64,000 nucleotides of DNA, from positions 1 to 64,000 of the forward strand of contig CAWHCF010000051.1 of NCBI GenBank assembly GCA_963827655.1, read 5' to 3'. Below, in pieces: positions 4,568 to 55,289 of the stretch (position 1 is its first letter; the number at the start of each line of letters is the position of its first letter). Made by a program: the position numbers and the translations under genes. The notes under the pieces are model-generated. The model was not told where the DNA came from. It searched no databases and saw nothing but the letters and a program-made list of their open reading frames with translations. The stretch comes from an uncultured Acidobacteriota bacterium. Its GTDB lineage: Bacteria; Acidobacteriota; UBA6911.

Positions 4568-4643
4568 TTTCCTTCGGGTCTTTGCGACTTGGTGGTGGTC
4601 TCACCGTCAGGTCTCAAAGACGCGAAGAAACGCGAAGAAAACT

Positions 4644-16597: not shown

Positions 16598-18942
16598 ATG
16601 ACCCGGCGTTCACGGGTTTTAATCGTTTCGTTAACGATAGTTACTTCAAGGTTCATCGTGTTTCAGATGAGAGCGTCTTCGACCCCGGCCTGGGCCTCGG
16701 AGAACTCGGAAACAAGCGAGACCTGGGCCTTCCATCCCGTGAAGCATCCTGTGGTTCCGAAGGTGAGCAGCACGTGTCGTACGCCGATTGACGCGTTCAT
16801 TTTCCGGAAGCTCGAACAGGCCGGACTTGCCCCTGCTCCTCCGGCCGCGCGCCTTCAACTGATCCGGCGCGTGACTTACGACCTGACGGGTCTGCCCCCC
16901 ACGCCGGAGGAGGTAGACTCGTTCCTCCGAGACAGCTCGGGCGCTGCCTTTGACAAAGTGGTGGAACGGCTGCTCGCTTCGCCTCGCTACGGCGAACAGT
17001 GGGGACGGCACTGGCTCGACGTCGTGCGCTACGCCGACACGGATGGCTATTCCAATGATTACGAACGGCCCAATGCGTGGCGCTATCGAGACTACGTCAT
17101 TCGCAGTTTCAACCAGGACAAGCCCTACGATCAATTCATTATCGAGCAAGCTGGCCGGCGACGAGCTGGAGGCGGGCAATACCGGAGAACTTGATCGCAA
17201 CCGGCTTCCTGCGAATGGGACCCTGGGAACAGACCTCGATGAGTGTGGCCGCAGCCACGCGGCAGCAATTTCTCGATGACGCGACTCAGACGACCGCAAC
17301 TACTTTTCTGGCCCTGACGGCCCGATGCGCCAGCTGCCACGATCACAAGTTCGATCCCATTCCGATCCGTGACTACTACCGGTTGCAAGCGGTGTTTGCG
17401 CCGGTCCAGTTCGAGCAGCGCGCGGCGCCGTTTCTGCCCGCGGAAGACGTCGCTCGCTTTGATGACGCTGTGACGCAAGTCAAGCGCAGGATCGAAGAAA
17501 ACGAACGCCGGCGCAAGGCTCTGGAGGCCGGAGCCCAGGAGCTTCTACTCAAGCGGCACGGCGTTTCCCAGATCAGCGAACTTCCAAGAGAAGTTGTGCG
17601 CGATGGCGTGGCCGACGAGGCAGGGGAACAGATCCGGGCGCTCAGAAAACGTATCGAGTACTATCAGCGCGAGCTGCAGCGGTACCAGCCGCTCTCGCTC
17701 AGTGTTTCGAGCGGCGGAGCGGAAAAAAAGATCCCTACGCCGGACACGCACATTCTGATCGGAGGCGGCCTGGAATCGCCCGGCGACAAGGTGTTGCCCG
17801 CGGTGTTCAGCGCCGCGCAGGGCGCTGCAGTGACCATCCCTCAGGCAACCGAAGGGCGCAGGCTTGCCCTGGCCCGCTGGATCGCCAGTCCATCGAATCC
17901 GCTGACGGCGCGCGTAATGGTGAACCGAATCTGGCAGCATCACTTCGGCCGCGGCCTGGTGAAGACCGGCAATAACTTCGGCAAGACGGGGGAGAGACCG
18001 ACGCACCCGGAGCTGCTGGACTGGCTGGCCGGCTACTTCGTCGAGCACGGCTGGAGCATCAAGGCTATGCACCGCCTCATTGTAAAATCGGCGGTGTATC
18101 AACGTTCGGCTGCACATCCCGAGGTTGACAGGCTTCGCCAGGTCGACCCCGAAAACAAGCTGCTATCGCATTTCTCACCTCGAAGGTTGGCAGCGGAGGA
18201 GTTGCGCGATTCAATTCTTGCGGCGGCGGGCGCTCTGAATCTGGAGGCGGGAGGTCCGGGGGTTTTTCCGGAGATCAATCGGGACCTGGCGCTGCAGCCG
18301 CGCCAGATCATGGGGACGATCGCGCCGGCGTACGAGCCCTCGGCCGCAAAGACGCAGCGGAACCGTCGCACGATCTATACTTTTCAGCAGCGCAACCTGC
18401 CGAATCCGCTGCTTGAAGTATTCAACGGACCGAACCTGAACGAGTCGTGTGAACAGCGCGACGCCAGTGTCACGGCGCCGCAGGTATTTGCTCTTTTCAA
18501 CAGCCAGTTCTTGAACGACGCAGCCCTTGAAATGGCGCGCAACGTCGATTGCGGTCTTCGGACTGCGGATTGCGGATTGAAGGAGGACAAAGCGATTGGG
18601 CAATCCGCAAGCCGCAGCCCGAAAGCCGCAATCGAGCGCGCGTTTCTCATGGTGTTCCAGCGACGTCCTGCTCCTCACGAAATGACGCGCTGCCTTGAGC
18701 ACCTCGAAAGAATGAACCGGTATCACGCGGCAGGTCCGCCGCGCACGGAAATCGCTCCCAGGCGGATCGTGCGCAGCATTATCGGGGAATTGACAGGAAA
18801 ACAATTCGATTTTGAAGAAGACTGGGATCCGGCGGCTTACGAGTTCAACCTGAAGCCCAGTCAAGTAACGGCCGGCGTCCGCGCTCTGGCCGAACTGTGT
18901 CTCGTGCTGCTGAACTCGAACGAATTCGCTTATGTTTATTGA
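16598..18942 (+). CDS. DUF1549/DUF1553 (PSCyt2/PSD1) domain protein, frameshift near 17150
   Basis: [88 protein letters not shown]. Confidence 0.9.
18545..18635. repeat. GATTGCG-heptamer inverted-arm element (family B) inside a CDS
   Basis: 35 nt arms 18545-18579 and 18601-18635, reverse-complementary with 4 mismatches; translated as [12 protein letters not shown]...[12 protein letters not shown]. Confidence 0.85.
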
Positions 18943-19014
18943 CGATTTACGATTGACGATTGACGATTGAAAAGTCGTCGGCCGATTCCAATCGTCAATC
19001 GTAAATCGTCAATC
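18938..19014. repeat. GACGATT-heptamer inverted-arm element (family A)
   Basis: ATTGACGATTTACGATTGACGATTG pairs perfectly (25 bp) with 18989-19013; contains the upstream stop codon. Confidence 0.95.
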
Positions 19015-28242: not shown

Positions 28243-28290
28243 GATTTTCTCTCCTTTATTGCGCTGGTGCTTAACCGATTTTTGGAGAAC

Positions 28291-28440
28291 CGTCCCCGTT
28301 CCCGTTCCCCGTTCCCGTTCCCGGTCAATCAAGTATAGCTGCGGATTCAGTCGCTAACCCACTGGGCCTGAGATATCGGGGTCGTAAACGGCATTACTAT
28401 AGGATACCGCCGGAAAAACGGGAACGGAAACGGGAACGTG
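28291..28440. repeat. CCCGTT-hexamer inverted-arm element between divergent genes
   Basis: (CCCGTT)n at 28291-28322 and (AACGGG/AACGGA)n at 28417-28438. Confidence 0.8.
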
Positions 28441-28515
28441 TACGAGGAGGAAATCCCCAGTTTGTAAAGCACCCTTCTTTGCCTCTTGCCATCTTCGTGG
28501 TAAGTTGTCCTTCCT

Positions 28516-32173: not shown

Positions 32174-34123
32174 ATGAGCATGAAAGACGAGATTATCTGG
32201 CGGCCTTCGGAAGAGTATTCGGCTTCGGCGAACGTTCGCCGTCTTATGGACCGGCACGGCATTAATAGCTATGCCGAACTCCTCGCGCGCTCGGTGGCCG
32301 ACATTCGCTGGTTTTGGGAAGCGTGTCTGGACGACCTGGGCGTCCAGTGGTATGCGCCTTATAGCGAAGTCCTCGATGATTCCCGCGGCTTTCCGTGGGG
32401 CCGCTGGTTTGTGTCGGGAAAGATTAACCTGGTTCACAATTGCCTGGATCGTCACCTCGAAACTCGTCCGGACCAGGTTGCAGTTTTGTGGGAGGGGGAT
32501 GACGGACAAACGCGGACGGTGACTTATCGGGATCTGAATTCGGAAGTGTGCCGGATCGCGGCCGGCATGCATGAACTCGGCATCGGCCGGCACGACACGG
32601 TCGGTATTTACATGCCGATGGTTCCGGAAATCGTGGCGGCGTTGTTCGCGGCCTGGAAGATCGGGGCGGTCGCGGTGCCCGTATTCGCGGGGTTTGGTCC
32701 GGAGGCGCTCGCGGTGCGGCTGCGCGATTCGGGCGCGAAGCTCCTTTTCACGGCCGACGGATCGTACCGTCGAGGGAAACATGTTCGCACCAAGGACGCG
32801 GCCGACCAGGCTCTGCAGTCGGTTCCGTCCGTCAAGTCGGTGATTGTACTCCGGCGCACCGGTGAGCCGATCTCCTGGGTCGATGGGCGGGATCTCTGGT
32901 GGGACCGCGTGGCCGTCAACTCGTCGGCCGATGTTCCGACCGAGCAGCTCGACGCCGAAGACCTTTGTCTGGTTCTCTACACCTCAGGAACGACAGGCCG
33001 TCCGAAGGGAACGCTTCACACGCAGGGCGGTACGTTGGCGAAGGTTGCAAAGGAGCTCGCCTACTTCATGGACGTGAAGACCGGCGATCGATTCTTCTGG
33101 CTCACGGATATGGGATGGATGATGGGCCCCTGGGAAATCATCGGGACGACATTCCTGGGAGCGTCGGTGCTTCTGTTCGAGGGAGCGCCCAACTGGCCCA
33201 ACCCGGACCGTGTGTGGGAAATGGTGGACCGGCATCGACTCACGCACCTGGGAATTTCTCCGACGGCCATTCGCCTTCTGCGTCGTTCGGGCGATGCCTG
33301 GGTGGAACGTCACGACCTGGACTCGCTTCGGATTCTGGCGTCGACCGGGGAGCCCTGGGATCTGGAATCTTATCTCTGGTTCTTCCACAAGGTAGGACGC
33401 GGACGCCGCCCTATCATCAATATCTCGGGCGGCACCGAGCTTATGGGCTGCCTGCTGGCAGCGCCGCCGATGTCAGAAATGAAGCCTTGCTCGCTCGGCG
33501 GACCCGGGTTGGGCATGGATGTGGACGTCGTTGATGACGAGGGAAGACCGGTCCGCAATACGCTGGGTTATCTGGTGCTCAAACAGCCTGCGCCGTCGAT
33601 GACCCGCGGCTTCCTTAATGATCCGCAGCGATATATCGAGACCTACTTTTCACGCTGGCCCGGCGTCTGGTTCCACGGGGATTGGGCGCTGGTCGACAAG
33701 GACGGTTTCTGGTTTATCCACGGCCGCGCGGATGACACCATTAAAGTTGCGGGCAAGCGGACGGGACCCGCCGAAGTTGAATCCGCGCTCATTGCGCACG
33801 AAGCTGTCTCCGAAGCTGCGGCCATCGGAATTCCTGACGAACTTAAAGGGGAGACCGTCGCCTGTTTTGCAGTCCTGAAGCCGGGAAACGAGTGGAGCGA
33901 TAAACTCTCCGAAGACCTCTCCGACCAGGTGGTGGAACACCTGGGAAAGACCCTTCGACCCAGGTTCATCTATTTTGTCAGCGCTCTTCCCAAGACGCGT
34001 TCCGGGAAAATCGTGCGCGGCGCGATCAGACGAAGGTTTCTGGGCGAAAGCGACGCGGATATTTCGTCGATCGAAAATCCCGAGGCGCTGGAAGCAATCC
34101 CACGATTGACGATTGACGATTGA
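32174..34123 (+). CDS. Acetate/acyl-CoA ligase (AMP-binding)
   Basis: YTSGTTGRPKG, STGEPW, SGGTE, HGD, GRADD, LPKTRSGKIVR; C-terminal RLTIDD encoded by a repeat arm. Confidence 0.92.
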   Translation: MSMKDEIIWRPSEEYSASANVRRLMDRHGINSYAELLARSVADIRWFWEACLDDLGVQWYAPYSEVLDDSRGFPWGRWFVSGKINLVHNCLDRHLETRPDQVAVLWEGDDGQTRTVTYRDLNSEVCRIAAGMHELGIGRHDTVGIYMPMVPEIVAALFAAWKIGAVAVPVFAGFGPEALAVRLRDSGAKLLFTADGSYRRGKHVRTKDAADQALQSVPSVKSVIVLRRTGEPISWVDGRDLWWDRVAVNSSADVPTEQLDAEDLCLVLYTSGTTGRPKGTLHTQGGTLAKVAKELAYFMDVKTGDRFFWLTDMGWMMGPWEIIGTTFLGASVLLFEGAPNWPNPDRVWEMVDRHRLTHLGISPTAIRLLRRSGDAWVERHDLDSLRILASTGEPWDLESYLWFFHKVGRGRRPIINISGGTELMGCLLAAPPMSEMKPCSLGGPGLGMDVDVVDDEGRPVRNTLGYLVLKQPAPSMTRGFLNDPQRYIETYFSRWPGVWFHGDWALVDKDGFWFIHGRADDTIKVAGKRTGPAEVESALIAHEAVSEAAAIGIPDELKGETVACFAVLKPGNEWSDKLSEDLSDQVVEHLGKTLRPRFIYFVSALPKTRSGKIVRGAIRRRFLGESDADISSIENPEALEAIPRLTIDD

Positions 34124-34264
34124 CGATTTACGATTGAGGACCACTTCGGGAAAGTTTCCCGGTGAAACCCACAGGGATATTGTGTCGATAGAATATCCCG
34201 CGAGGTTTGACGATTGTCGGTTGTTGGTTGAAATCGTCAATCGTAAATCGTAAATCGTCAATCG
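34102..34264. repeat. Family A heptamer inverted-arm element with ~95 bp spacer
   Basis: (ACGATTG)n at 34102-34137 and (AATCGTC/AATCGTA)n at 34232-34264. Confidence 0.93.
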
Positions 34265-36946: not shown

Positions 36947-37067
36947 CGATTGCAGATTTACGATTGACGATTGACGATTTAAAAATCAATAGTCAACGTT
37001 TGCTGCCAGGCTATCCGTCAATCATCAATCTGCAATCGTCAATCGTCAATCGTACAATCGTCAATCG
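36947..37067. repeat. Family A heptamer inverted-arm element overlapping the P450 3' end
   Basis: Arms 36947-36980 and 37016-37067 share a GATTGCAGATT variant unit. Confidence 0.9.
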
Positions 37068-39996: not shown

Positions 39997-40090
39997 GCGG
40001 ACTCTCTTCCTCCTCGAATGCTATTGCCGTGCCCCAACGACTTGATCCAACCATAGTCTGGTTCGGGTTTAGATTTCAATACATGTTTTT

Positions 40091-40275
40091 CCGATTGCGG
40101 ATCATCTCCGATTGCGGATTATTCCGATTGCGGATTGCGGATTTCAGATTGCGGATTGGAAAAAACGGAGCATGCTGTTGGGTCGACAGTCACGTGCGCG
40201 CACTATGAAACAGATAACGAAACAATCCGCAATCCGACAATCCGCAATCCGAAATCCGCAATCCGCAATCGGAAT
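40091..40275. repeat. Family B heptamer inverted-arm element between divergent genes
   Basis: 38 nt arms 40121-40158 and 40238-40275 with one mismatch; the right arm runs into the MFS ATG. Confidence 0.95.
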
Positions 40276-41458
40276 GGCCGAGTTCTTCGGGCTTCGCGCC
40301 AATATCGTGGCGTTGCTGGCCGCGATAATCTTTATCGGCAGCGGCGAGGAACTCTGGATTCGATTTGTGCCCAAGTACCTCGAGGTTCTTGGCGCCGGAA
40401 CTTTTGTAATCGGGATCTACGACGGCCTCAAGACACTGCTGGGTGCGGTGTACGCTTACCCCGGCGGGATCTTGACCGATCGATGGGGACACCGGAAGGC
40501 GCTGTCGTTTTTTACGGCGCTCTCGATCGCCGGGTACCTCATTGTCTATGCGATTCCGCACTGGGCCGCTGTCCTGGGAGCCACCTTTCTTTTTCTGGCC
40601 TGGGCTTCGTTTTCGCTTCCGGCCACGTTCTCACTGGTGGGCACGAACCTTGCGCCGGAAAAATATGGAATGGGAATCGCCCTGCAGTCGATCATCAAGC
40701 GTATTCCGGTTCTGATTGGACCGGTTTTGGGCGGTATCCTGATCGACAGGTTCGGCCTGCATGCCGGCATCCGTATTGGGCTCCTGGCCTCCGCCGTCCT
40801 GGGGTTGATTGCGATGCTGGTCCAAAACAGGATTTCCGAGATTGAGTTGCGCGGCGCGAAGGACGTCCCGCTGCGGTTTCGCTTTGCGGTTGGGCAGTTC
40901 CGGCCGGAACTGCGGCGTCTCCTTCTGTCAGACATCCTGGTTCGCTTCTGCGAACGCATCCCGGCAGCCTGGGTGGTTATCATGGTAATGTCGCGCGCCG
41001 GCTTGAGCGCCAGGGAATTCGGCTATCTAACCGCATTGGAAGTTGCCGTCGCGATGCTCTGCTTCATACCGGTCGCCTACCTGTCGGATCGTTATGGTCG
41101 AGAGCCTTTTGTGATCTTGACCTTTGTGTTTTTCACGCTCTTTCCCCTCGCCTTGCTTCAGGCGCAGACCTTGTCCTGGCTCGCGCTCGCCTTCACGATT
41201 CGTGGTTTGAAAGAGTTTGGCGAGCCTGCGCGCAAGGCGCTCATCATTCGGTACAGCTCCGGCTCGAATCAAGGACAACTGATAGGGGCGTACTATCTGA
41301 TTCGAGACATTACCGTCACACCGGGGGCGCTGCTCGGCGCCTGGTTGTGGGCCGCCGGACCCGAGGTCAATTTTTGGGGAGCATTTCTTTTCGGTCTGCT
41401 GGGCACCGCGTACTACGCCTTGACGGTAGCACGTATTGCATTGACGATTTACGATTGA
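40274..41458 (+). CDS. MFS transporter
   Basis: About 12 hydrophobic segments; GGILTDRWGHRK and LSDRYGREP motif-A copies. Confidence 0.9.
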   Translation: MAEFFGLRANIVALLAAIIFIGSGEELWIRFVPKYLEVLGAGTFVIGIYDGLKTLLGAVYAYPGGILTDRWGHRKALSFFTALSIAGYLIVYAIPHWAAVLGATFLFLAWASFSLPATFSLVGTNLAPEKYGMGIALQSIIKRIPVLIGPVLGGILIDRFGLHAGIRIGLLASAVLGLIAMLVQNRISEIELRGAKDVPLRFRFAVGQFRPELRRLLLSDILVRFCERIPAAWVVIMVMSRAGLSAREFGYLTALEVAVAMLCFIPVAYLSDRYGREPFVILTFVFFTLFPLALLQAQTLSWLALAFTIRGLKEFGEPARKALIIRYSSGSNQGQLIGAYYLIRDITVTPGALLGAWLWAAGPEVNFWGAFLFGLLGTAYYALTVARIALTIYD

Positions 41459-41532
41459 CGATTGACGATTGAAACCAGATGGCGGCGCGCCTCTTTAAAT
41501 CGTCAATCGTCAATCGTAAATCGTCAATCGTC
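41440..41532. repeat. Family A heptamer inverted-arm element
   Basis: 31 bp perfect inverted repeat 41440-41470 / 41498-41528; contains the MFS stop codon. Confidence 0.95.
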
Positions 41533-49310: not shown

Positions 49311-49344
49311 CTGAAAGCTGACGGCTGATGCTGACGGCTGACGG
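49311..49344 (+). repeat. Degenerate GCTGACG-type heptamer run
   Basis: CTGAAAG CTGACGG CTGATG CTGACGG CTGACGG; weak partner CATCAGC near 49241. Confidence 0.55.
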
Positions 49345-49367: not shown

Positions 49368-50603
49368 ATGTTCAGTTTCGAAAGTATTCGCGGCGCTCTC
49401 AGTAACCTCGGCCGGCGGAAGCTCCGCTCCTTCTTGACCATGCTGGGAATGATCTTCGGCGTGGGGGCCGTGATCGCCATGCTCTCGATCGGCGCGGGAG
49501 CGGAACGGGAGAGCCTCAGGATTATCGAGAATTTCGGCATCCGCAACATCATCATTCAAGCCAAGGAATTCAAACAGGAAGAGCTGAAGCAGATCCGCAC
49601 GGAATCGCTCGGGCTCGCGCTGCGCGACCTGGAGGCGCTCGAGGCCGTGCTTAAGCCGAAGCCGCTGGTCTCAGCCAAGAGGGTGGTCAAGACTTTTCAG
49701 GTGATCTCCGACAAGGGACGAAGCGACAGCCGCGTCCTTGGAGTCAGCAGTACCTTTCCCACGATTCAAAACCTGAAGCTTGTCCAGGGCTCGTTCTTTC
49801 TCCCCTTCGATGAAGAGGCCTCCAATCAGGTCTGTGTTCTGGGGATGACCGCCAAGCAAAAGCTGTTCGGATTCGGCACCGTCCTGGGCGAGCGGATCAA
49901 AATCAATGACCAGTGGTCGACCGTCATCGGCGTTCTCGCCGACGCGAACGTGGAGAAGCAGGAATTCGAAGGGGTAAAAATCCAGAATCCAAACAACGAC
50001 ATCTACATTCCCATCACGACCTCGTTAAAAAAATTCGAGAGGGACACGCTCGACAACGAGCTCCATGAAGTCGTAGTCCAGGTAGCGGACAGAGGGGATC
50101 TGAGGGAGCAGGCGGCTGCCATCAGCAATCTCATGTCGACGATGCACCGCTACGTGGATGACTATTCGCTGATCGTGCCGGAAAAACTGCTGGAACAGAA
50201 TCAGAAGACCCAGGGTATCTTCAACATCGTGATGGGAGCTATCGCCAGCATCTCCCTTCTGGTGGGGGGAATCGGAATCATGAACATCATGCTGGCTTCG
50301 GTTCTCGAGCGGACGACCGAGATAGGACTGCGGCGAGCGATCGGGGCCCGCAAGCGCGACATCCGGGTTCAATTCATAGCCGAGGCGCTGGGGCTTAGCC
50401 TCGCGGGCGGCCTCGCGGGTATCGCCCTGGGATACGCCATCTCACGGGGGGTGGCCATCTATTCCGGGTGGAGCACTATAATCACGGCAGCCTCGATAGG
50501 CTTGTCGTTCGGAGTCAGCTCGCTGGTAGGGCTGATCTTCGGCATCTACCCCGCCGTCCAGGCGTCTAATCTCGATCCCATCGAGTGCCTGCGCTACGAG
50601 TAG
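49368..50603 (+). CDS. MacB/FtsX-type ABC transporter permease
   Basis: RSFLTMLGMIFGV, SLLVGGIGIMNIML, ERTTEIGLRRAIGA, YPA..ASNLDPIECLRYE. Confidence 0.93.
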   Translation: MFSFESIRGALSNLGRRKLRSFLTMLGMIFGVGAVIAMLSIGAGAERESLRIIENFGIRNIIIQAKEFKQEELKQIRTESLGLALRDLEALEAVLKPKPLVSAKRVVKTFQVISDKGRSDSRVLGVSSTFPTIQNLKLVQGSFFLPFDEEASNQVCVLGMTAKQKLFGFGTVLGERIKINDQWSTVIGVLADANVEKQEFEGVKIQNPNNDIYIPITTSLKKFERDTLDNELHEVVVQVADRGDLREQAAAISNLMSTMHRYVDDYSLIVPEKLLEQNQKTQGIFNIVMGAIASISLLVGGIGIMNIMLASVLERTTEIGLRRAIGARKRDIRVQFIAEALGLSLAGGLAGIALGYAISRGVAIYSGWSTIITAASIGLSFGVSSLVGLIFGIYPAVQASNLDPIECLRYE

Positions 50604-50648: not shown

Positions 50649-51959
50649 TCAGGGCCGGTTGAGATACTTTTCGTAGAGCCGGGTGTGTTTGGTTTCGAGG
50701 CTGACATTCTTTCCGGCGATAAACAGATGTTTCACCTGTGTCCGTATCTCGAGCAAGTCGCCGTCCGTAACCACGAGGTCGGCGATTTTCCCAGTCTCAA
50801 TGCTTCCCACTTTGGCTGCCACACCCAGGATTTCCGCGGGATTCAGAGTCACGGCCTTCAGCGCGTCTTCGTGAGAAAGGCCGTAGGCCTCGGCGAACCC
50901 GGCTTCGTAGGGCAGATTCCTGACTTCTGAGCTGCTCGACGAGGTCAGTGCGAACTTGATCCCGGCCCTTGCCAGATCGCGGGGCAGCGTGAACCGGGCG
51001 TCATAAGGATCGTCCTCCCGGTCGGGCAAGGCGACGATCGAGCCGAGTATGACCGGAATATTCTCTCGCTTCAAAAGCTCCGCTGTCTTGTTGGCCTCGC
51101 GTCCGCCCTGGAGAACGACCTTCAGCTTCTCTTTCCTGGCGAAGTCGACCGCGTTCTTGATGTCGCGTTCGGAATCAGCCTGCAGGAATACCGGCAATTC
51201 TCCTTTGATCACCGGAACCAGGGCTTCGAGCTTCCGATCTCTTTCCGTGCCGGGATTGGCTCCGCGAGCTTTGTCGTAGTGGCGGGCCGCCTCGAACAGA
51301 TCGGACAGTTCCTTGACTCGCTTTTCGTAATTGCGCTTGATTTCAGCGAAGCTTCGTCGCTGCGCGCCGCCCCGGCCCCCGCCGCCGGCGCGAGAACGTT
51401 GAGCCGGGTCGAGACTCGGAAAGTCAAGGACCAGTCCCGCAGATTTCAGGAGGGCCATTTCGTCAACAGTCCAGCCGTCGAGATGGAGCAAGGTCGCCTG
51501 GCCCGCGATGATGCCGCCCGAAGGGGCGCTCACACTGGCCGTGATGCCGTTCACGCGGGCAACGGGAATGTGTTCGCTGGCTGGGTGGATGGCGGTGAAT
51601 GCCAGCAGGTGAGGATTATAGTCACCCATCTCGGAGGCGTCGTTGGTGGCCGGAACCGATGTGATCTCGGTCAGCCCCAGATTGCTCCAGGCATTGATCA
51701 TCCCGGGATAAACTTCGAGTCCCTGACCGTTGATTATCTGCGCGCCGGCCGGAATCTTCACCCCCGCACCGACGGCGGCAATCTTGCCATCAACGACAAC
51801 CACGGTGGCGCGAGACAGCGTTCCGGACGAGCCCAGGGTGTGAACCTTGGCGTCTCGTATGGCATAGACCCGGTTGTCGCCGGCCGCCCACCCGGCCAGC
51901 GCAAGAGCGGAGAGCGCAAGCGTCCAGTTCACCAGTGTGATTGGTTTTCTCATGATCAA
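50649..51959 (-). CDS. Secreted amidohydrolase-family protein (metal ligands look degenerate)
   Basis: VYPGMINAWS replaces PG.IDxHxH; AVTLNPA, GSIETGKIADLV. Confidence 0.85.
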   Translation of the reverse strand: MIMRKPITLVNWTLALSALALAGWAAGDNRVYAIRDAKVHTLGSSGTLSRATVVVVDGKIAAVGAGVKIPAGAQIINGQGLEVYPGMINAWSNLGLTEITSVPATNDASEMGDYNPHLLAFTAIHPASEHIPVARVNGITASVSAPSGGIIAGQATLLHLDGWTVDEMALLKSAGLVLDFPSLDPAQRSRAGGGGRGGAQRRSFAEIKRNYEKRVKELSDLFEAARHYDKARGANPGTERDRKLEALVPVIKGELPVFLQADSERDIKNAVDFARKEKLKVVLQGGREANKTAELLKRENIPVILGSIVALPDREDDPYDARFTLPRDLARAGIKFALTSSSSSEVRNLPYEAGFAEAYGLSHEDALKAVTLNPAEILGVAAKVGSIETGKIADLVVTDGDLLEIRTQVKHLFIAGKNVSLETKHTRLYEKYLNRP

Positions 51960-51964
51960 CCTCG

Positions 51965-53386
51965 TTATTCTTCCGGTGGAGCCGCAGCTGTCGCGGTGAC
52001 GTCCGTGGGTGGTCCGCGGCGGGAATCCGGGCGGCGCTCACGATCCTGGTTCTTCCGGTCCATTTCCTTGAGCTCCTTCCGTTCCTTTTCCGTCAGCTGC
52101 CGCAGTTCCAGGTCTCTCTTCACATCGAAATAGACCTGACCGTCGATCAGGACCTTTTGCGCAACAGCGTAGACACTCAGGGGATGCCGGTTATAGATCA
52201 CCAGGTCCGCATCCTTGCCCGGATCAATCGAACCGACGCGCTGGTCGACGCGCAGTTGCTTCGCTGGATTCAGTGTAACGAGCGCCAGCGCTTCCTGCTC
52301 GCTGAGCCCGCCGTATTTCATGCACTTTGCCGCCTCCTGATTCAGGTGGCGGGCCTCTTCCGCGCTGTCGGAGTTGATCGATACCAGGACCCCTTTGCGC
52401 GTCATGATGGCCGCGTTGTGGGGTATGGCGTCATAAGCCTCGACCTTGTAGGCCCACCAGTCGGAGAAGGTCGACGCGCCGGCGCCGTGGGCGGCGATCT
52501 CCCTGGCGACCTTGTAGCCTTCAAGCACGTGCTGGAAAGTGGCGATCTTGAAACCAAACTCGTCCGCCAGGCGAATGAGCATCAGAATCTCGTCGGCGCG
52601 GTAGCCGTGAGAGTGCACCAGCCGCTCGCCGCGCAAGACCTCGGCCAGCGCTTCCAGCTTCAAGTCTCTGCGCGGAGGTATGGCAGTCCGCTCTCCGCCG
52701 GCGGCGCGTTTCTTGTAGTCGTCCCATCTCTGCATGTACGTCCGCGCCTCAATAAAGGCTTCGCGGATCACGTCCTCGACCCCCATGCGCGTCTGGGGAT
52801 ACCGGCCCGGCGTCGTGCTCGGCCCGGCGCTGCGGGAGCGCTTCGGGTTCTCGCCCAGAGCGAACTTTATTCCCGGTTGGGCGCCTTCAAAAATGAGCCC
52901 TTTTGCGTCCTTCCCCCAGCGCAGCTTGATCAGCTGGTTGCGGCCGCCGATCGGGTTCGCGCTGCCGTGAAGAATATTGGAGGAGGTGACTCCCCCCGCC
53001 AGGTCGCGATAGATGTTGATGTCGGTTGAATCAATGACATCCTCGACACCGACCATGGCCGTCACTGCCAGGCTCCCTTCGTTCACGCCGCCGGCGGTCG
53101 CGATATGCGAATGGCAGTCGATAATTCCGGGCATTACATACTGCCCGGAGCCGTCGATGACGGTTGCCCCGGCCGGGGCTTTCACCTCGGGCCCGACCTC
53201 GGCGATCTTGCCGTCGCGGATGAGTATCGACCCCTTGGGAATGGTGCCGTGGGACACGGTCAGAATCGTCGCGTCCTTGATCAACGTCAGGCCGGCGCTT
53301 GAAGCGGCTGACTGGGGATCGAATGCCAGCAGATACGAGGCGCACGCGATGAGTATCAAGGCTGCGGTCAAAACATTTCTCTTCAT
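51965..53386 (-). CDS. Secreted amidohydrolase-family protein
   Basis: [49 protein letters not shown]. Confidence 0.92.
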
Positions 53387-53416
53387 GATCTACGGCCTTT
53401 CTGGTGGTGCCGGCAT

Positions 53417-53449
53417 AGAAGCCAGGAGTCAGAAGTCAGAAGCCAGAAT
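53417..53449 (+). repeat. AGAAGTC-type heptamer arm (family E), downstream of the four-helix-bundle gene
   Basis: AGAAGCC AGGAGTC AGAAGTC AGAAGCC AGAAT; contains the gene's stop codon. Confidence 0.9.
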
Positions 53450-53809
53450 CGCCTTTGCATATGCATTCAGCAGGCGGCTGACTTCCTCCAGGAGATTCAT
53501 CCTTCCTTCTTGAGGTCTACCGTAACCTAGGTCGTGTGCCAGCATCAGGTAGTAGCGGCTCTCTTCAAGCGAACCCTCGGCAATGTTCATGAATCGCGCT
53601 TTGTCGGCCTTGCCTCGCCGCTTGAAACCTTCTGCAACGTTCGCCGGTATGGACACGGCGGCCTTTCGCATTTGCTGCACCAGGCCATAGATCTCGCGCT
53701 GCGGGAACGATTCCGTGTAACGATACACTTCGAGCACAAATTCATGAGCTTTCTGCCATACCAGTAGATCGCGGAAGGTCTTTGCGCTTGGCCGCTGTGC
53801 TTGCATCAT
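53429..53809 (-). CDS. Four-helix-bundle protein (23S rRNA-IVP-like / TIGR02436-type family)
   Basis: FRDLLVWQKA, FP..EIYGL..QMRKAAVSIPANVAEG, FMNIAEGSLEE, DLGY motifs. Confidence 0.92.
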   Translation of the reverse strand: MMQAQRPSAKTFRDLLVWQKAHEFVLEVYRYTESFPQREIYGLVQQMRKAAVSIPANVAEGFKRRGKADKARFMNIAEGSLEESRYYLMLAHDLGYGRPQEGRMNLLEEVSRLLNAYAKAILASDF

Positions 53810-53853
53810 ATTACTCCATCTCGTGATGTTATCCTTTCAGGTAGTGCGACCCC

Positions 53854-53889
53854 CTTCTTGCTCCTGACTCCTGACTTCTTGCTTCTGAC
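53854..53889 (-). repeat. Family E heptamer arm, upstream of the four-helix-bundle gene, inverted relative to 53417-53449
   Basis: Minus strand reads GTC AGAAGCA AGAAGTC AGGAGTC AGGAGCA AGAAG. Confidence 0.9.
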
Positions 53890-53924
53890 GTGAACAAAAT
53901 TCTTCGTAAGCTCGGGCCAACGGT

Positions 53925-55289
53925 CTAGAAGAGTCCGGCTCGGGCTTTTCCGCTGAGGGAGGAGCTTCCCTCGCAGCGGGAAGATTCCGGCTCAGGAATG
54001 TCGAATTTTGCCCCGTCGATGAAAACATGCTTCACGCGCGTACGCGAATCGAAGAGGTCGCCGGTGGCAACTACCAGATTCGCGGTCTTTCCCTTTTCGA
54101 GACTGCCGAACCGGTCGGCAACGCCGAAAATCTCGGCCGGCGTCAAGGTAAGAGCGCGCAGGGCGATATCCTTGTCCAGACCGGCTTCGATGCTTCTGCT
54201 GATATTGCGCATGAAGTCGCGCGGATTTGTCATGTCCCCCGACTGGAAAGCGAATTGAACTCCGGCCCGGGCCAGGGCTGCTGCGGTGCCTGGCGCTGCC
54301 ACTCTGCGACGCAGCACCTGCAGCTCCTCTTCGGCCGCCGGGTCTGCTTCGCGGTCTCTTTCCGGAAACTTGACTGACAAAAGCACCGGTACCTTGTTTT
54401 CCTTGAGCAGGGCGGCGGCCGTGGCAGCCTCCAGACCTCCATTGAGAATCATCTGGAGCTTGAAGGAATCTGCCAGGTTGATGGAACGCTCGATTTGCGC
54501 CGGCGTGTCACCCGGGAGCACGACCGGCATCTGCCTTTTGAGCGCCGGCTGAAGAGCCTCGAGCGCCCGGTCATATTCAGGCCGCTCCGCGCCGCGATTC
54601 GCGTTGTAGATTCCCCACGCCCTTTCGTAGTGCTGGGCATCCAGGAGCTTCTGTTTTACAAACGCAAGAACTCCCATCAAGGAACTCGGGTAACTTCCTC
54701 CGAAGCCCCCGCTGGTCTGCAATCCGATGTGCATCGCGACCGGTGACTTGACCACCATCTGGCCCGCTCTGATTCCCGATAGATTGATCAGCGCGCTTTG
54801 CCCCGGGAACAGACCTCGCCGCGGCGCCACGAGCGCGATGGTGATTCCTGAGGCGCGCGAGGCCTCGATCTTCCTGTTTGCCAGATTGATGATGTCGGCC
54901 GCGCTCACGTGCGGGGTCAGTGGCTGGCGCTCTTCCGGCGTGGCGGCGGGCGATTGCTGCGCCGGGACACCGGGACGGGCTCCAGGCGTTGTTCCCGCCG
55001 GCGGGCGCGGTTCTTCGAGTGTTGCATCGGACAAGCTGTCGATCAGCCCGGGATAAATCGTCAGACCCGTGGCATCGATAATACGGGCATCACCGGGCAA
55101 GGACACGCTCTCTCCGAGCGCTTCGATGATTCCGCCGCGGATCAGGATGGTCCCCTTCTCGATCGGCGCTGTCGAAACCGGGATCAGCCGCGCGTTGGTA
55201 AGGGCATAGACGGGCGGCTCGCCGGTCCGGACGCCGGGCGCCGCTGCCAGAACGAGCCCGATCAGGGCAATGATTCGAAACGACGTCAT
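53925..55289 (-). CDS. Secreted amidohydrolase-family protein (metal ligands look degenerate)
   Basis: YPGLIDSLS, YPSSLMG, ALTLTPA, GSLEKGKTANLV; signal peptide; GGAGG RBS. Confidence 0.87.
   Translation of the reverse strand: MTSFRIIALIGLVLAAAPGVRTGEPPVYALTNARLIPVSTAPIEKGTILIRGGIIEALGESVSLPGDARIIDATGLTIYPGLIDSLSDATLEEPRPPAGTTPGARPGVPAQQSPAATPEERQPLTPHVSAADIINLANRKIEASRASGITIALVAPRRGLFPGQSALINLSGIRAGQMVVKSPVAMHIGLQTSGGFGGSYPSSLMGVLAFVKQKLLDAQHYERAWGIYNANRGAERPEYDRALEALQPALKRQMPVVLPGDTPAQIERSINLADSFKLQMILNGGLEAATAAALLKENKVPVLLSVKFPERDREADPAAEEELQVLRRRVAAPGTAAALARAGVQFAFQSGDMTNPRDFMRNISRSIEAGLDKDIALRALTLTPAEIFGVADRFGSLEKGKTANLVVATGDLFDSRTRVKHVFIDGAKFDIPEPESSRCEGSSSLSGKARAGLF

Follow-up and report, generated by a model that had tools for sequence, protein, structure and literature searches.

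A four-helix-bundle gene between inverted heptamer arms probably lies in a non-autonomous copy of an apparently undescribed insertion sequence of the rolling-circle type

This study found that a repeat-armed unit at positions 53415-53924 of a 64,000-nucleotide stretch of DNA from an uncultured Acidobacteriota bacterium (hereafter the window) is probably, at odds of about 0.7, a non-autonomous derivative of an apparently undescribed insertion sequence of the rolling-circle type, in which a four-helix-bundle (FHB) gene rides as a dispensable passenger or accessory. Descent of the unit from an element with the left end (LE) and right end (RE) described below is highly probable; the rolling-circle chemistry, which is read from a structure model, is reasonably likely. 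The observations behind this reading are shared ends, dispersed copies, a deletion series, insertion at YTAG without duplication, and loss of the enzyme gene here.

The FHB gene (53429-53809, minus strand, as are all parts of the unit) is intact. In profile searches, its 126-aa product was a clear member of PF05635 (121.5 bits, cut-off 33.8) and matched TIGR02436 with 117.5 bits (cut-off 24); a relative with a solved structure is 2GSC (E 9e-22). Arm 1 (53855-53889) has about five AG(A/G)AG(T/C)C units and lies directly behind the LE. Arm 2 (about 53415-53451), inverted relative to arm 1, is made of TTCTGRC-type units, which encode the final FHB residues and include the TGA stop codon. An earlier note on this DNA had described a 126-aa FHB gene between inverted AGRAGYC-type arrays, with its stop inside the downstream arm and with co-oriented amidohydrolase genes on either side, and all of this was confirmed. 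The note missed a conserved transposon-like end, with which the unit reaches 35 nt past the upstream arm, as far as 53924. This LE (53890-53924) starts with ACCGTT and contains a degenerate GAATTTTGTTC hairpin, and the target tetranucleotide CTAG (53925-53928) stands directly outside the element. Judged by eye, the leader at 53810-53854 is a remnant of the spacer that lies, in autonomous elements, between divergent transposase-like and FHB genes. The window copy ends at 53415 without an RE.

The host genes, both on the minus strand, are an upstream amidohydrolase gene (53925-55289) and a downstream one (51965-53386), the latter adjoined by a third amidohydrolase gene (50649-51959). The CTAG at 53925-53928 holds the TAG stop codon of the upstream ORF in this assembly; it is unsure as the native stop, because near-identical contigs vary there through indels and a 326-nt segment. 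An FHB gene was present at the amidohydrolase junction in none of 14 relative loci (10 tight junctions and four empty pairs of other units), indicating that the site is an insertion. Among public DNA contigs, one from run X1 spans both borders of the unit, which is thus not an assembly artefact. An X3 contig (six differences in 512 bases) tracks the window to 53411 and then runs into octamer-type repeat, so the site is polymorphic among close strains. Contigs of X1 and X2 have additional internal deletions, present as DNA. Near the 3' end of the upstream amidohydrolase gene (window 53953-53975), contigs of X1-X3 carry about 326 extra bases that probably encode the C-terminal domain present in several relatives; the window either lost this segment or is misassembled.

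A BLAST search with a full copy revealed 32 related loci in this genome: four hold the whole gene, most others are internally deleted, and a few consist of arms or one end only. The RE, which lies beyond arm 2 and consists of two hairpins and a CTRG end, is common to 16 loci. The LE, behind YTAR and before arm 1, is common to 13 loci besides the window copy (14 matches, one judged to be chance), not counting variants of this end. One deletion junction occurs on contigs C27 (twice), C28, C49 and C53, and another on C22 and C48; C23:175608 gave one further match to the recurrent junction (match only). The same deletion junction in different flanks indicates that the deleted copies themselves moved. 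By eye, seven initial codons of the transposase-like gene survive in long-leader copies, where they lie between arm 1 and the start of the FHB gene. This genome, which is 90% complete, yielded no intact enzyme gene, and the trans-acting source is therefore missing. The series thus resembles MITEs: the copies are dispersed, have both ends of the autonomous element, are internally deleted and lack a transposase, with the window copy having the LE only. When the earlier note called the unit transposase-less, this was right for the copy itself and wrong for the element, which encodes a candidate transposase in other genomes. Two other members of the family were seen, namely an arm-less LE-RE miniature (C40:29818) and an older, diverged armed copy (C29:47808). 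Predicted DNA hairpin folds gave z -3.75 for locus L065 and z -2.06 for L108; the others of the four were not significant or unusable.

The exact RE pattern was found at 38 loci in other genomes (Acidobacteriota, Verrucomicrobiota, Methylomirabilota and one Stellaceae). Some of these have an LE and an RE without arms or FHB gene, and some enclose a 539-aa ORF. At L079, this ORF lies between LE and RE with no FHB gene, and at L082 the order is LE, 539-aa ORF, divergent FHB gene, arm 2 and RE; the FHB protein of the autonomous element in L082/L106 is 76% identical to that of the window. The element is 1.8-2.4 kb long, multi-copy and chromosomal, with precise ends, and the 539-aa type gene is its only conserved gene. 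On sequence grounds, this ORF behaves as a candidate transposase gene. At L154, an element without an FHB gene retains an ACTGACA-type heptamer run before the RE, suggesting the loss of a further FHB clade.

The target of the element was read from 80 metagenome loci. TTAG precedes the LE in 50 of 62 distinct flanks and CTAG in five, and the RE ends in CTAG in 49 of 52 cases. The two flanking tetramers differ at 17 of 45 loci. TTAG follows the RE exactly in 33 of 52, and variants are also frequent; this TTAG may reflect target preference or read-through to a second site, and could also be read as a partial duplication. Removal of the element from L155 gave a gap-free 66-aa match (64% identity, E 5e-24) to an intact gene on contig C2, and removal of four more bases broke the restored match, so both ends are fixed and a duplication is excluded in that case. 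Target-site duplication was rejected on account of both the flanking tetramers and this excision. A nucleotide search among the loci found no uninterrupted empty site for 42 joined flanks. Genome G293 has ten copies of a distant family member, all ten behind CTAG in unrelated flanks (one judged by eye); in eight of these copies, TAG occurs within five bases after the right end, hinting that the target is longer than a tetramer. By these sequences, the element inserts 3' of YTAG and leaves no duplication. In L126, an RE is joined directly to an LE, which may reflect either a circle or copies in tandem. The ends were also considered by eye as integron attC or group II intron sequences, and both readings were dropped.

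The 539-aa protein has 3,601 relatives among 8,000 scored candidates, and among the 120 matches listed these are unnamed, hypothetical or regulator proteins. At E <0.001, 5,995 clusters (50% identity) are related to it. Searches of Pfam, NCBIfam, PHROGs, PDB sequences and phages gave nothing useful; there were only unnamed Atlas clusters, and plasmid matches are annotated as hypothetical or regulator. Across 83 aligned members there was no Rep, transposase or HUH match in Pfam, and no match to the PF02486 profile. The element ORF has no PF01797 match, and its near-invariant columns contain no conserved HxH. A full-length model (pLDDT 85) predicts a winged helix at residues 376-498, with weaker Rep_trans and TBP matches. 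For residues 1-372 (pLDDT 90.7), the best Foldseek match was RepSTK1 (4cij, E 2.8e-3, probability 0.96), and the top seven VIA rows were all TBP or Rep_trans (Z 9.1 to 7.0; next 6.3), including TBP at Z 9.1, 4cij at Z 7.5 (rmsd 4.6, 196 aligned) and 4cwc at Z 7.0. These scores are moderate, in that no Foldseek match to the PDB reached E 0.001 and common arrangements can reach Z 7-9. A viral structure library added further TBP-like proteins and A0A345MNV4, an inovirus Rep_trans according to the available text of PMC13107129.

Five residues are conserved in 95-99% of rows: D20 (70/73), E245 (80/82), Y320 (77/78), R328 (77/80) and E330 (75/79). The model puts Y320 within a strand, and LLRTE fits motif IV, W/LxRxE, as given in the accessible part of PMC5714925. 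The protein is a candidate Rep_trans-type tyrosine nickase; we infer this chemistry from the model, since the fold scores are moderate and the catalytic residues were mapped by motif and secondary structure rather than by superposition on RepDE. The full element comprises the LE, a transposase-like gene in reverse orientation toward the LE, an optional divergent FHB gene with a heptamer run, and the RE. Its enzyme, with Y320 as putative nucleophile, D20, E245 and E330 as putative metal ligands and the winged helix for DNA binding, would nick at YTAG|ACCG. The displaced strand would be carried through to the hairpin-CTAG right end and then joined 3' of a YTAG target, a route that IS91 and Helitrons take by means of an unrelated HUH enzyme. 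Copies with deletions would move in trans, and the window copy would have landed at the end of the amidohydrolase gene, with its RE lost or never copied.

In 23 of the 80 metagenome loci, an FHB gene runs divergently from the enzyme gene at a distance of 55-115 nt, a share inflated because these loci were fetched with patterns of an FHB-bearing element. Among 28 genomes with upstream sequence (31 with the locus), five have this arrangement, three of which had also surfaced in searches for FHB or the RE. In this genome, by comparison, FHB loci number 11 in some 5,800 called genes. Element-linked FHB proteins belong to at least four clades and have several repeat units. Within the window's FHB clade, autonomous elements have arm 2 only, with an arm before the FHB gene in none of 22 and an arm at the LE in none of 20 with a visible LE. 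Arm 1 adjoins the LE in short derivatives (nine of 17 loci with LE near RE, by rough patterns). Arm 1 looks secondary in this clade and was perhaps, as a guess, copied from arm 2. On a tree of 32 enzymes (full-length, deduplicated and with FHB or RE visible, out of 81 loci), the FHB label changes five times. Its presence in part of the loci and these five changes indicate that FHB is dispensable for the element, yet repeatedly linked to it. Of the 17 further FHB loci that were examined, one had an RE. FHB does not mobilise this family; it is an optional passenger or accessory that is found repeatedly in one slot, and its likeliest role would be that of a putative binder of heptamer runs at the element ends.

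Repeat arrays of this kind extend far beyond the element. The whole genome contains 701 heptamer arrays and, counting nested ones, 234 inverted heptamer pairs, as against 13 and 16 arrays and no inverted pair in two shuffled genomes, which excludes chance for the pairs. Arm spacing is below 200 bp in 216 of 259 pairs of all unit lengths in this genome, and the polarity is that seen around FHB genes in 137/152 ATTGACG, 39/40 GATTGCG and 12/12 AGAAGYC pairs. A profile search with PF05635 gave 12 matches at 11 loci of the genome, and inverted arrays flank all 11, which bears out the expectation of the earlier note that FHB genes lie between arms. The window's family accounts for four of these loci; at each of the remaining seven, the inverted arrays are built from a unit particular to that locus, and the ends described here are absent. 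The further expectation that protein clades track repeat units held for most close FHB relatives (50-71% identity), which have related units, and failed for L197, L198 and L201, where the units differ. Among 100 other genomes of the class, AGAAGYC-type runs occur in 11 of 13 with a close FHB relative vs 28 of 87 without, kin not being independent; 10 of 14 run-rich genomes have no close FHB relative with the window query. Heptamer repeats are reported as abundant in the accessible part of PMC4692102.

All seven further arm pairs that the earlier note had listed in the window are present. Empty ATTGACG pairs overlap stop codons at 18938-19014, 34102-34264 and 41440-41532, and another (36947-37067) lies between two minus-strand genes; empty GATTGCG pairs are found at 40089-40270 and 18547-18631. 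The description of these pairs as often overlapping start or stop codons thus holds for stops and not for the pair at 18547-18631, which lies in frame within ORF 17077-18942 and gives it about 28 additional codons. Among stop-side arm edges, 112 of 190 lie within 15 nt of a stop, a raw count to be read with the fact that ATTGACG-like units contain TGA and can end any frame. Nor is every pair without cargo: the one at 28291 holds fragments of a further FHB gene. It belongs to a deletion derivative of a second FHB family with CCGTTC hexamer arms (28266-28473, minus strand), whose outer ends, GTGCTTWAC ... GTTAAGCAC, look like short terminal inverted repeats. Other loci of this family are C41:219190, C52:93038-93336, C52:94624-94885 and loci on C14, C23 and C29; the deletion at 28266-28473 recurs identically at C41:219190, and the two copies on C52 bracket a 390-aa gene. 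No enzyme was found for the CCGTTC deletion series.

For every repeat unit of the empty pairs in the window, this genome has a cognate FHB gene at another locus, and the AGAAGYC and CCGTTC families each include copies in which one internal deletion recurs at separate loci. The proposal of the earlier note that filled and empty forms belong to one system is supported to this extent. The element explanation does not cover the ATTGACG and GATTGCG pairs, which are the largest families of empty pairs: no FHB remnants were found inside them in this genome, and LE-like motifs occur in 0 of 234 ATTGACG flanks and one of 72 GATTGCG flanks. The interiors of these pairs are singletons in 103 of 128 cases, and a cluster of 17 is joined through repeats only. 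Most empty pairs in the window lack the element ends and stay outside the element explanation.

Several smaller repeat features were also noted. Octamer (CACGAAGA-type) arrays with hairpins occur in the window at 4620, 8693, 13253, 50613 and 55337; elsewhere in the genome, several AGAAGYC-family copies adjoin arrays of this type, in which the GGTTAG tail contains a TTAG available as target. At the junction before an ABC permease gene (49368-50603), a GCTGACG heptamer run stands alone (49317-49344). The 3' end of an FHB gene and its arm are tandemly duplicated behind the gene, once at C26:290555-290651 and twice at C25:44878-45105. Six CATTKKT pairs (C1, C18, C23, C46 and C53) with a common interior hairpin and no FHB remnant are a separate small repeat family. 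An ATTGACG pair at C14:138687-139332 encloses a 175-aa fragment, which we take to resemble an IS4-type transposase.

Two explanations of the FHB gene compete within this picture. FHB and its heptamers may be an independent selfish or regulatory unit that spreads to gene boundaries by its own means, was captured several times and hitchhikes on the element, a reading with somewhat less than even odds that is compatible with the best explanation of how this copy moved and differs on the role of FHB only. Consistent with it are the seven other FHB loci of this genome, which have arms and lack the element ends, the four relatives with empty pairs of other units at the same junction, the octamer-type sequence in the X3 contig, and about 150 ATTGACG pairs with unique interiors and no FHB remnant. 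Chance capture, however, leaves unexplained why element-borne FHB genes occupy one slot in one orientation, and why the arms sometimes enclose the enzyme gene too. These facts suit an FHB protein that is a true accessory subunit, like Avd in DGRs, and that would bind the heptamer runs and bridge the two ends; ordinary arm-FHB-arm cassettes across bacteria would then descend from such elements through loss first of the enzyme gene and subsequently of the outer ends. In favour of this more doubtful alternative, members of four or more FHB clades take one slot and one orientation next to enzymes from three or more subfamilies (G013, G045, G271, G194 and G017), and in G271, L132 and G194 the arms surround both genes, each with its own unit. 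Moreover, arm 1 lies outside the enzyme-gene remnant in this genome, so that deletion of the enzyme gene gives exactly an arm-FHB-arm cassette. It has to contend with the lack of an FHB gene in 57 of 80 loci (some without upstream sequence), the five changes on the enzyme tree, the missing arm 1 in all 20 autonomous elements of the window's clade, and the many FHB cassettes and empty pairs, a majority, without a trace of the ends.

Other readings place the motor elsewhere. Movement as REP/REPIN-like copies by the single Y1 (RAYT-like) HUH enzyme of the genome, or by an integron integrase, is very improbable: both ends do have GNA-loop hairpins and GTTAG-like words, and there is one PF01797 gene (C35:41745), but the same ends enclose a Rep_trans-fold gene in dozens of loci, and inspection by eye found no such ends in the region adjacent to the Y1 locus and no attC-type box pair in the RE. 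The earlier note offered, as one example, an mRNA-level intervening sequence (IVS) whose arms pair into a processing stem. In this reading, RNase III would cut the paired arms of the transcript, excising the unit or splitting the operon message as in 23S rRNA. In the predicted RNA fold, the arms do pair over about 19 bp; according to the accessible text of PMC4990558, RNase III cleaves in vitro a Coxiella IVS that contains an S23p ORF; and a 214-nt RNA-library contig matches 53651-53864 exactly, which is no proof of transcription. Against this, G.U shows no excess over A.C (82:84) when mismatches are counted along the mRNA strand for 101 co-oriented pairs, arm pairs are not enriched between co-oriented genes (124/187 pairs vs 3995/5784 gene pairs), the whole-region fold has z -1.8, and skipped forms are present as DNA contigs. 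It also leaves the spread of copies unexplained. We consider the RNA-level reading unlikely, and the mismatch balance gives the note's proposal no support, although the arms can form a stem.

With the unit read as a derivative of an insertion sequence, the results offer a candidate motor for at least one lineage of repeat-armed FHB cassettes and a testable way for them to spread, and they point to an insertion-sequence family with thousands of unannotated members. A wider proposal, put forward tentatively, is a new class of transposon in which a TBP-fold nickase is joined by an FHB accessory that pairs the ends via heptamers. If so, the arm-FHB-arm cassettes of many phyla, ORF-bearing rRNA IVSs and much of the heptamer excess would be its deleted offspring. 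A literature search, mostly of open-access papers and exclusive of ISfinder and supplements, found no FHB genes with heptamer arms outside rRNA and no insertion sequence with a Rep_trans-type transposase; in a term search, the available text of PMC4679880, on TAACTGA repeats, contained none of six terms for FHB, IVS or transposase. Ends, target site and candidate catalytic residues have been delimited precisely enough that transposition could be assayed directly, in the presence and in the absence of FHB and arms. Such an assay bears on the old proposal, cited in the accessible part of PMC4990558, that the IVS protein serves mobility.

ORF-bearing 23S rRNA IVSs (Coxiella S23p) share the protein family and complementary termini with the window unit, and PMC4990558 cites the idea of IVSs as transposition remnants or mobile elements. 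Complementary termini are present here as the predicted stem of about 19 bp; unlike those IVSs, the window unit is located between protein-coding genes, carries transposon ends beyond the stem and belongs to a set of dispersed deleted copies. Avd of DGRs is likewise a small accessory gene beside a mobility enzyme, and the window FHB matches Avd profiles weakly, below the cut-offs (NF033474, 31.4 bits, cut-off 80; PF22296, 21.7 bits, cut-off 40), but the partner here is not a reverse transcriptase. In REPIN-RAYT systems, a Y1 RAYT gene is flanked by its cognate repeats; this genome has a single Y1 gene, with no matching ends seen by eye in the adjacent region. IS200/IS605 elements also insert 3' of a tetranucleotide, have subterminal hairpins and may carry an optional second gene. 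These features are given in part in the available text of 10.1101/2023.03.14.532601. The present element differs in having neither Y1 TnpA nor TnpB, and its optional gene encodes FHB and comes with heptamer runs.

By its model, the candidate enzyme has the TBP-like fold of Rep_trans proteins (PF02486: RepSTK1 4cij, RepDE 4cwc and MOB-T relaxases), and its strand tyrosine, its three acidic residues and its LxRxE fit the Rep_trans motifs. In archaeal Rep-Arvir, according to the accessible part of PMC13107129, there is also a winged helix, and a hairpin origin lies downstream. The hosts of Rep_trans named in the available sections of PMC5714925 and PMC13107129 are plasmids, phages and conjugative elements, and insertion sequences are absent from those lists. 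Unlike the enzyme proposed here, these proteins replicate plasmids and viruses or start conjugation, and they have no sequence-level match to the 539-aa protein. To our knowledge, this fold is otherwise known only from plasmid, virus and conjugation initiators. The 3' ends of Helitrons consist of a hairpin and CTRR. IS91, ISCR and Helitrons agree with the element in several respects (PMC5714925, accessible text): terminal inverted repeats and target duplications are absent, a short target of fixed sequence adjoins one end, a hairpin precedes the other, and non-autonomous copies with deletions exist. They differ in that their transposases are HUH enzymes, whereas the element ORF has no HUH match in Pfam and a TBP/Rep_trans model with a C-terminal winged helix. 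By this analogy, the element is best explained as one that works like IS91 or a Helitron while being a member of neither.
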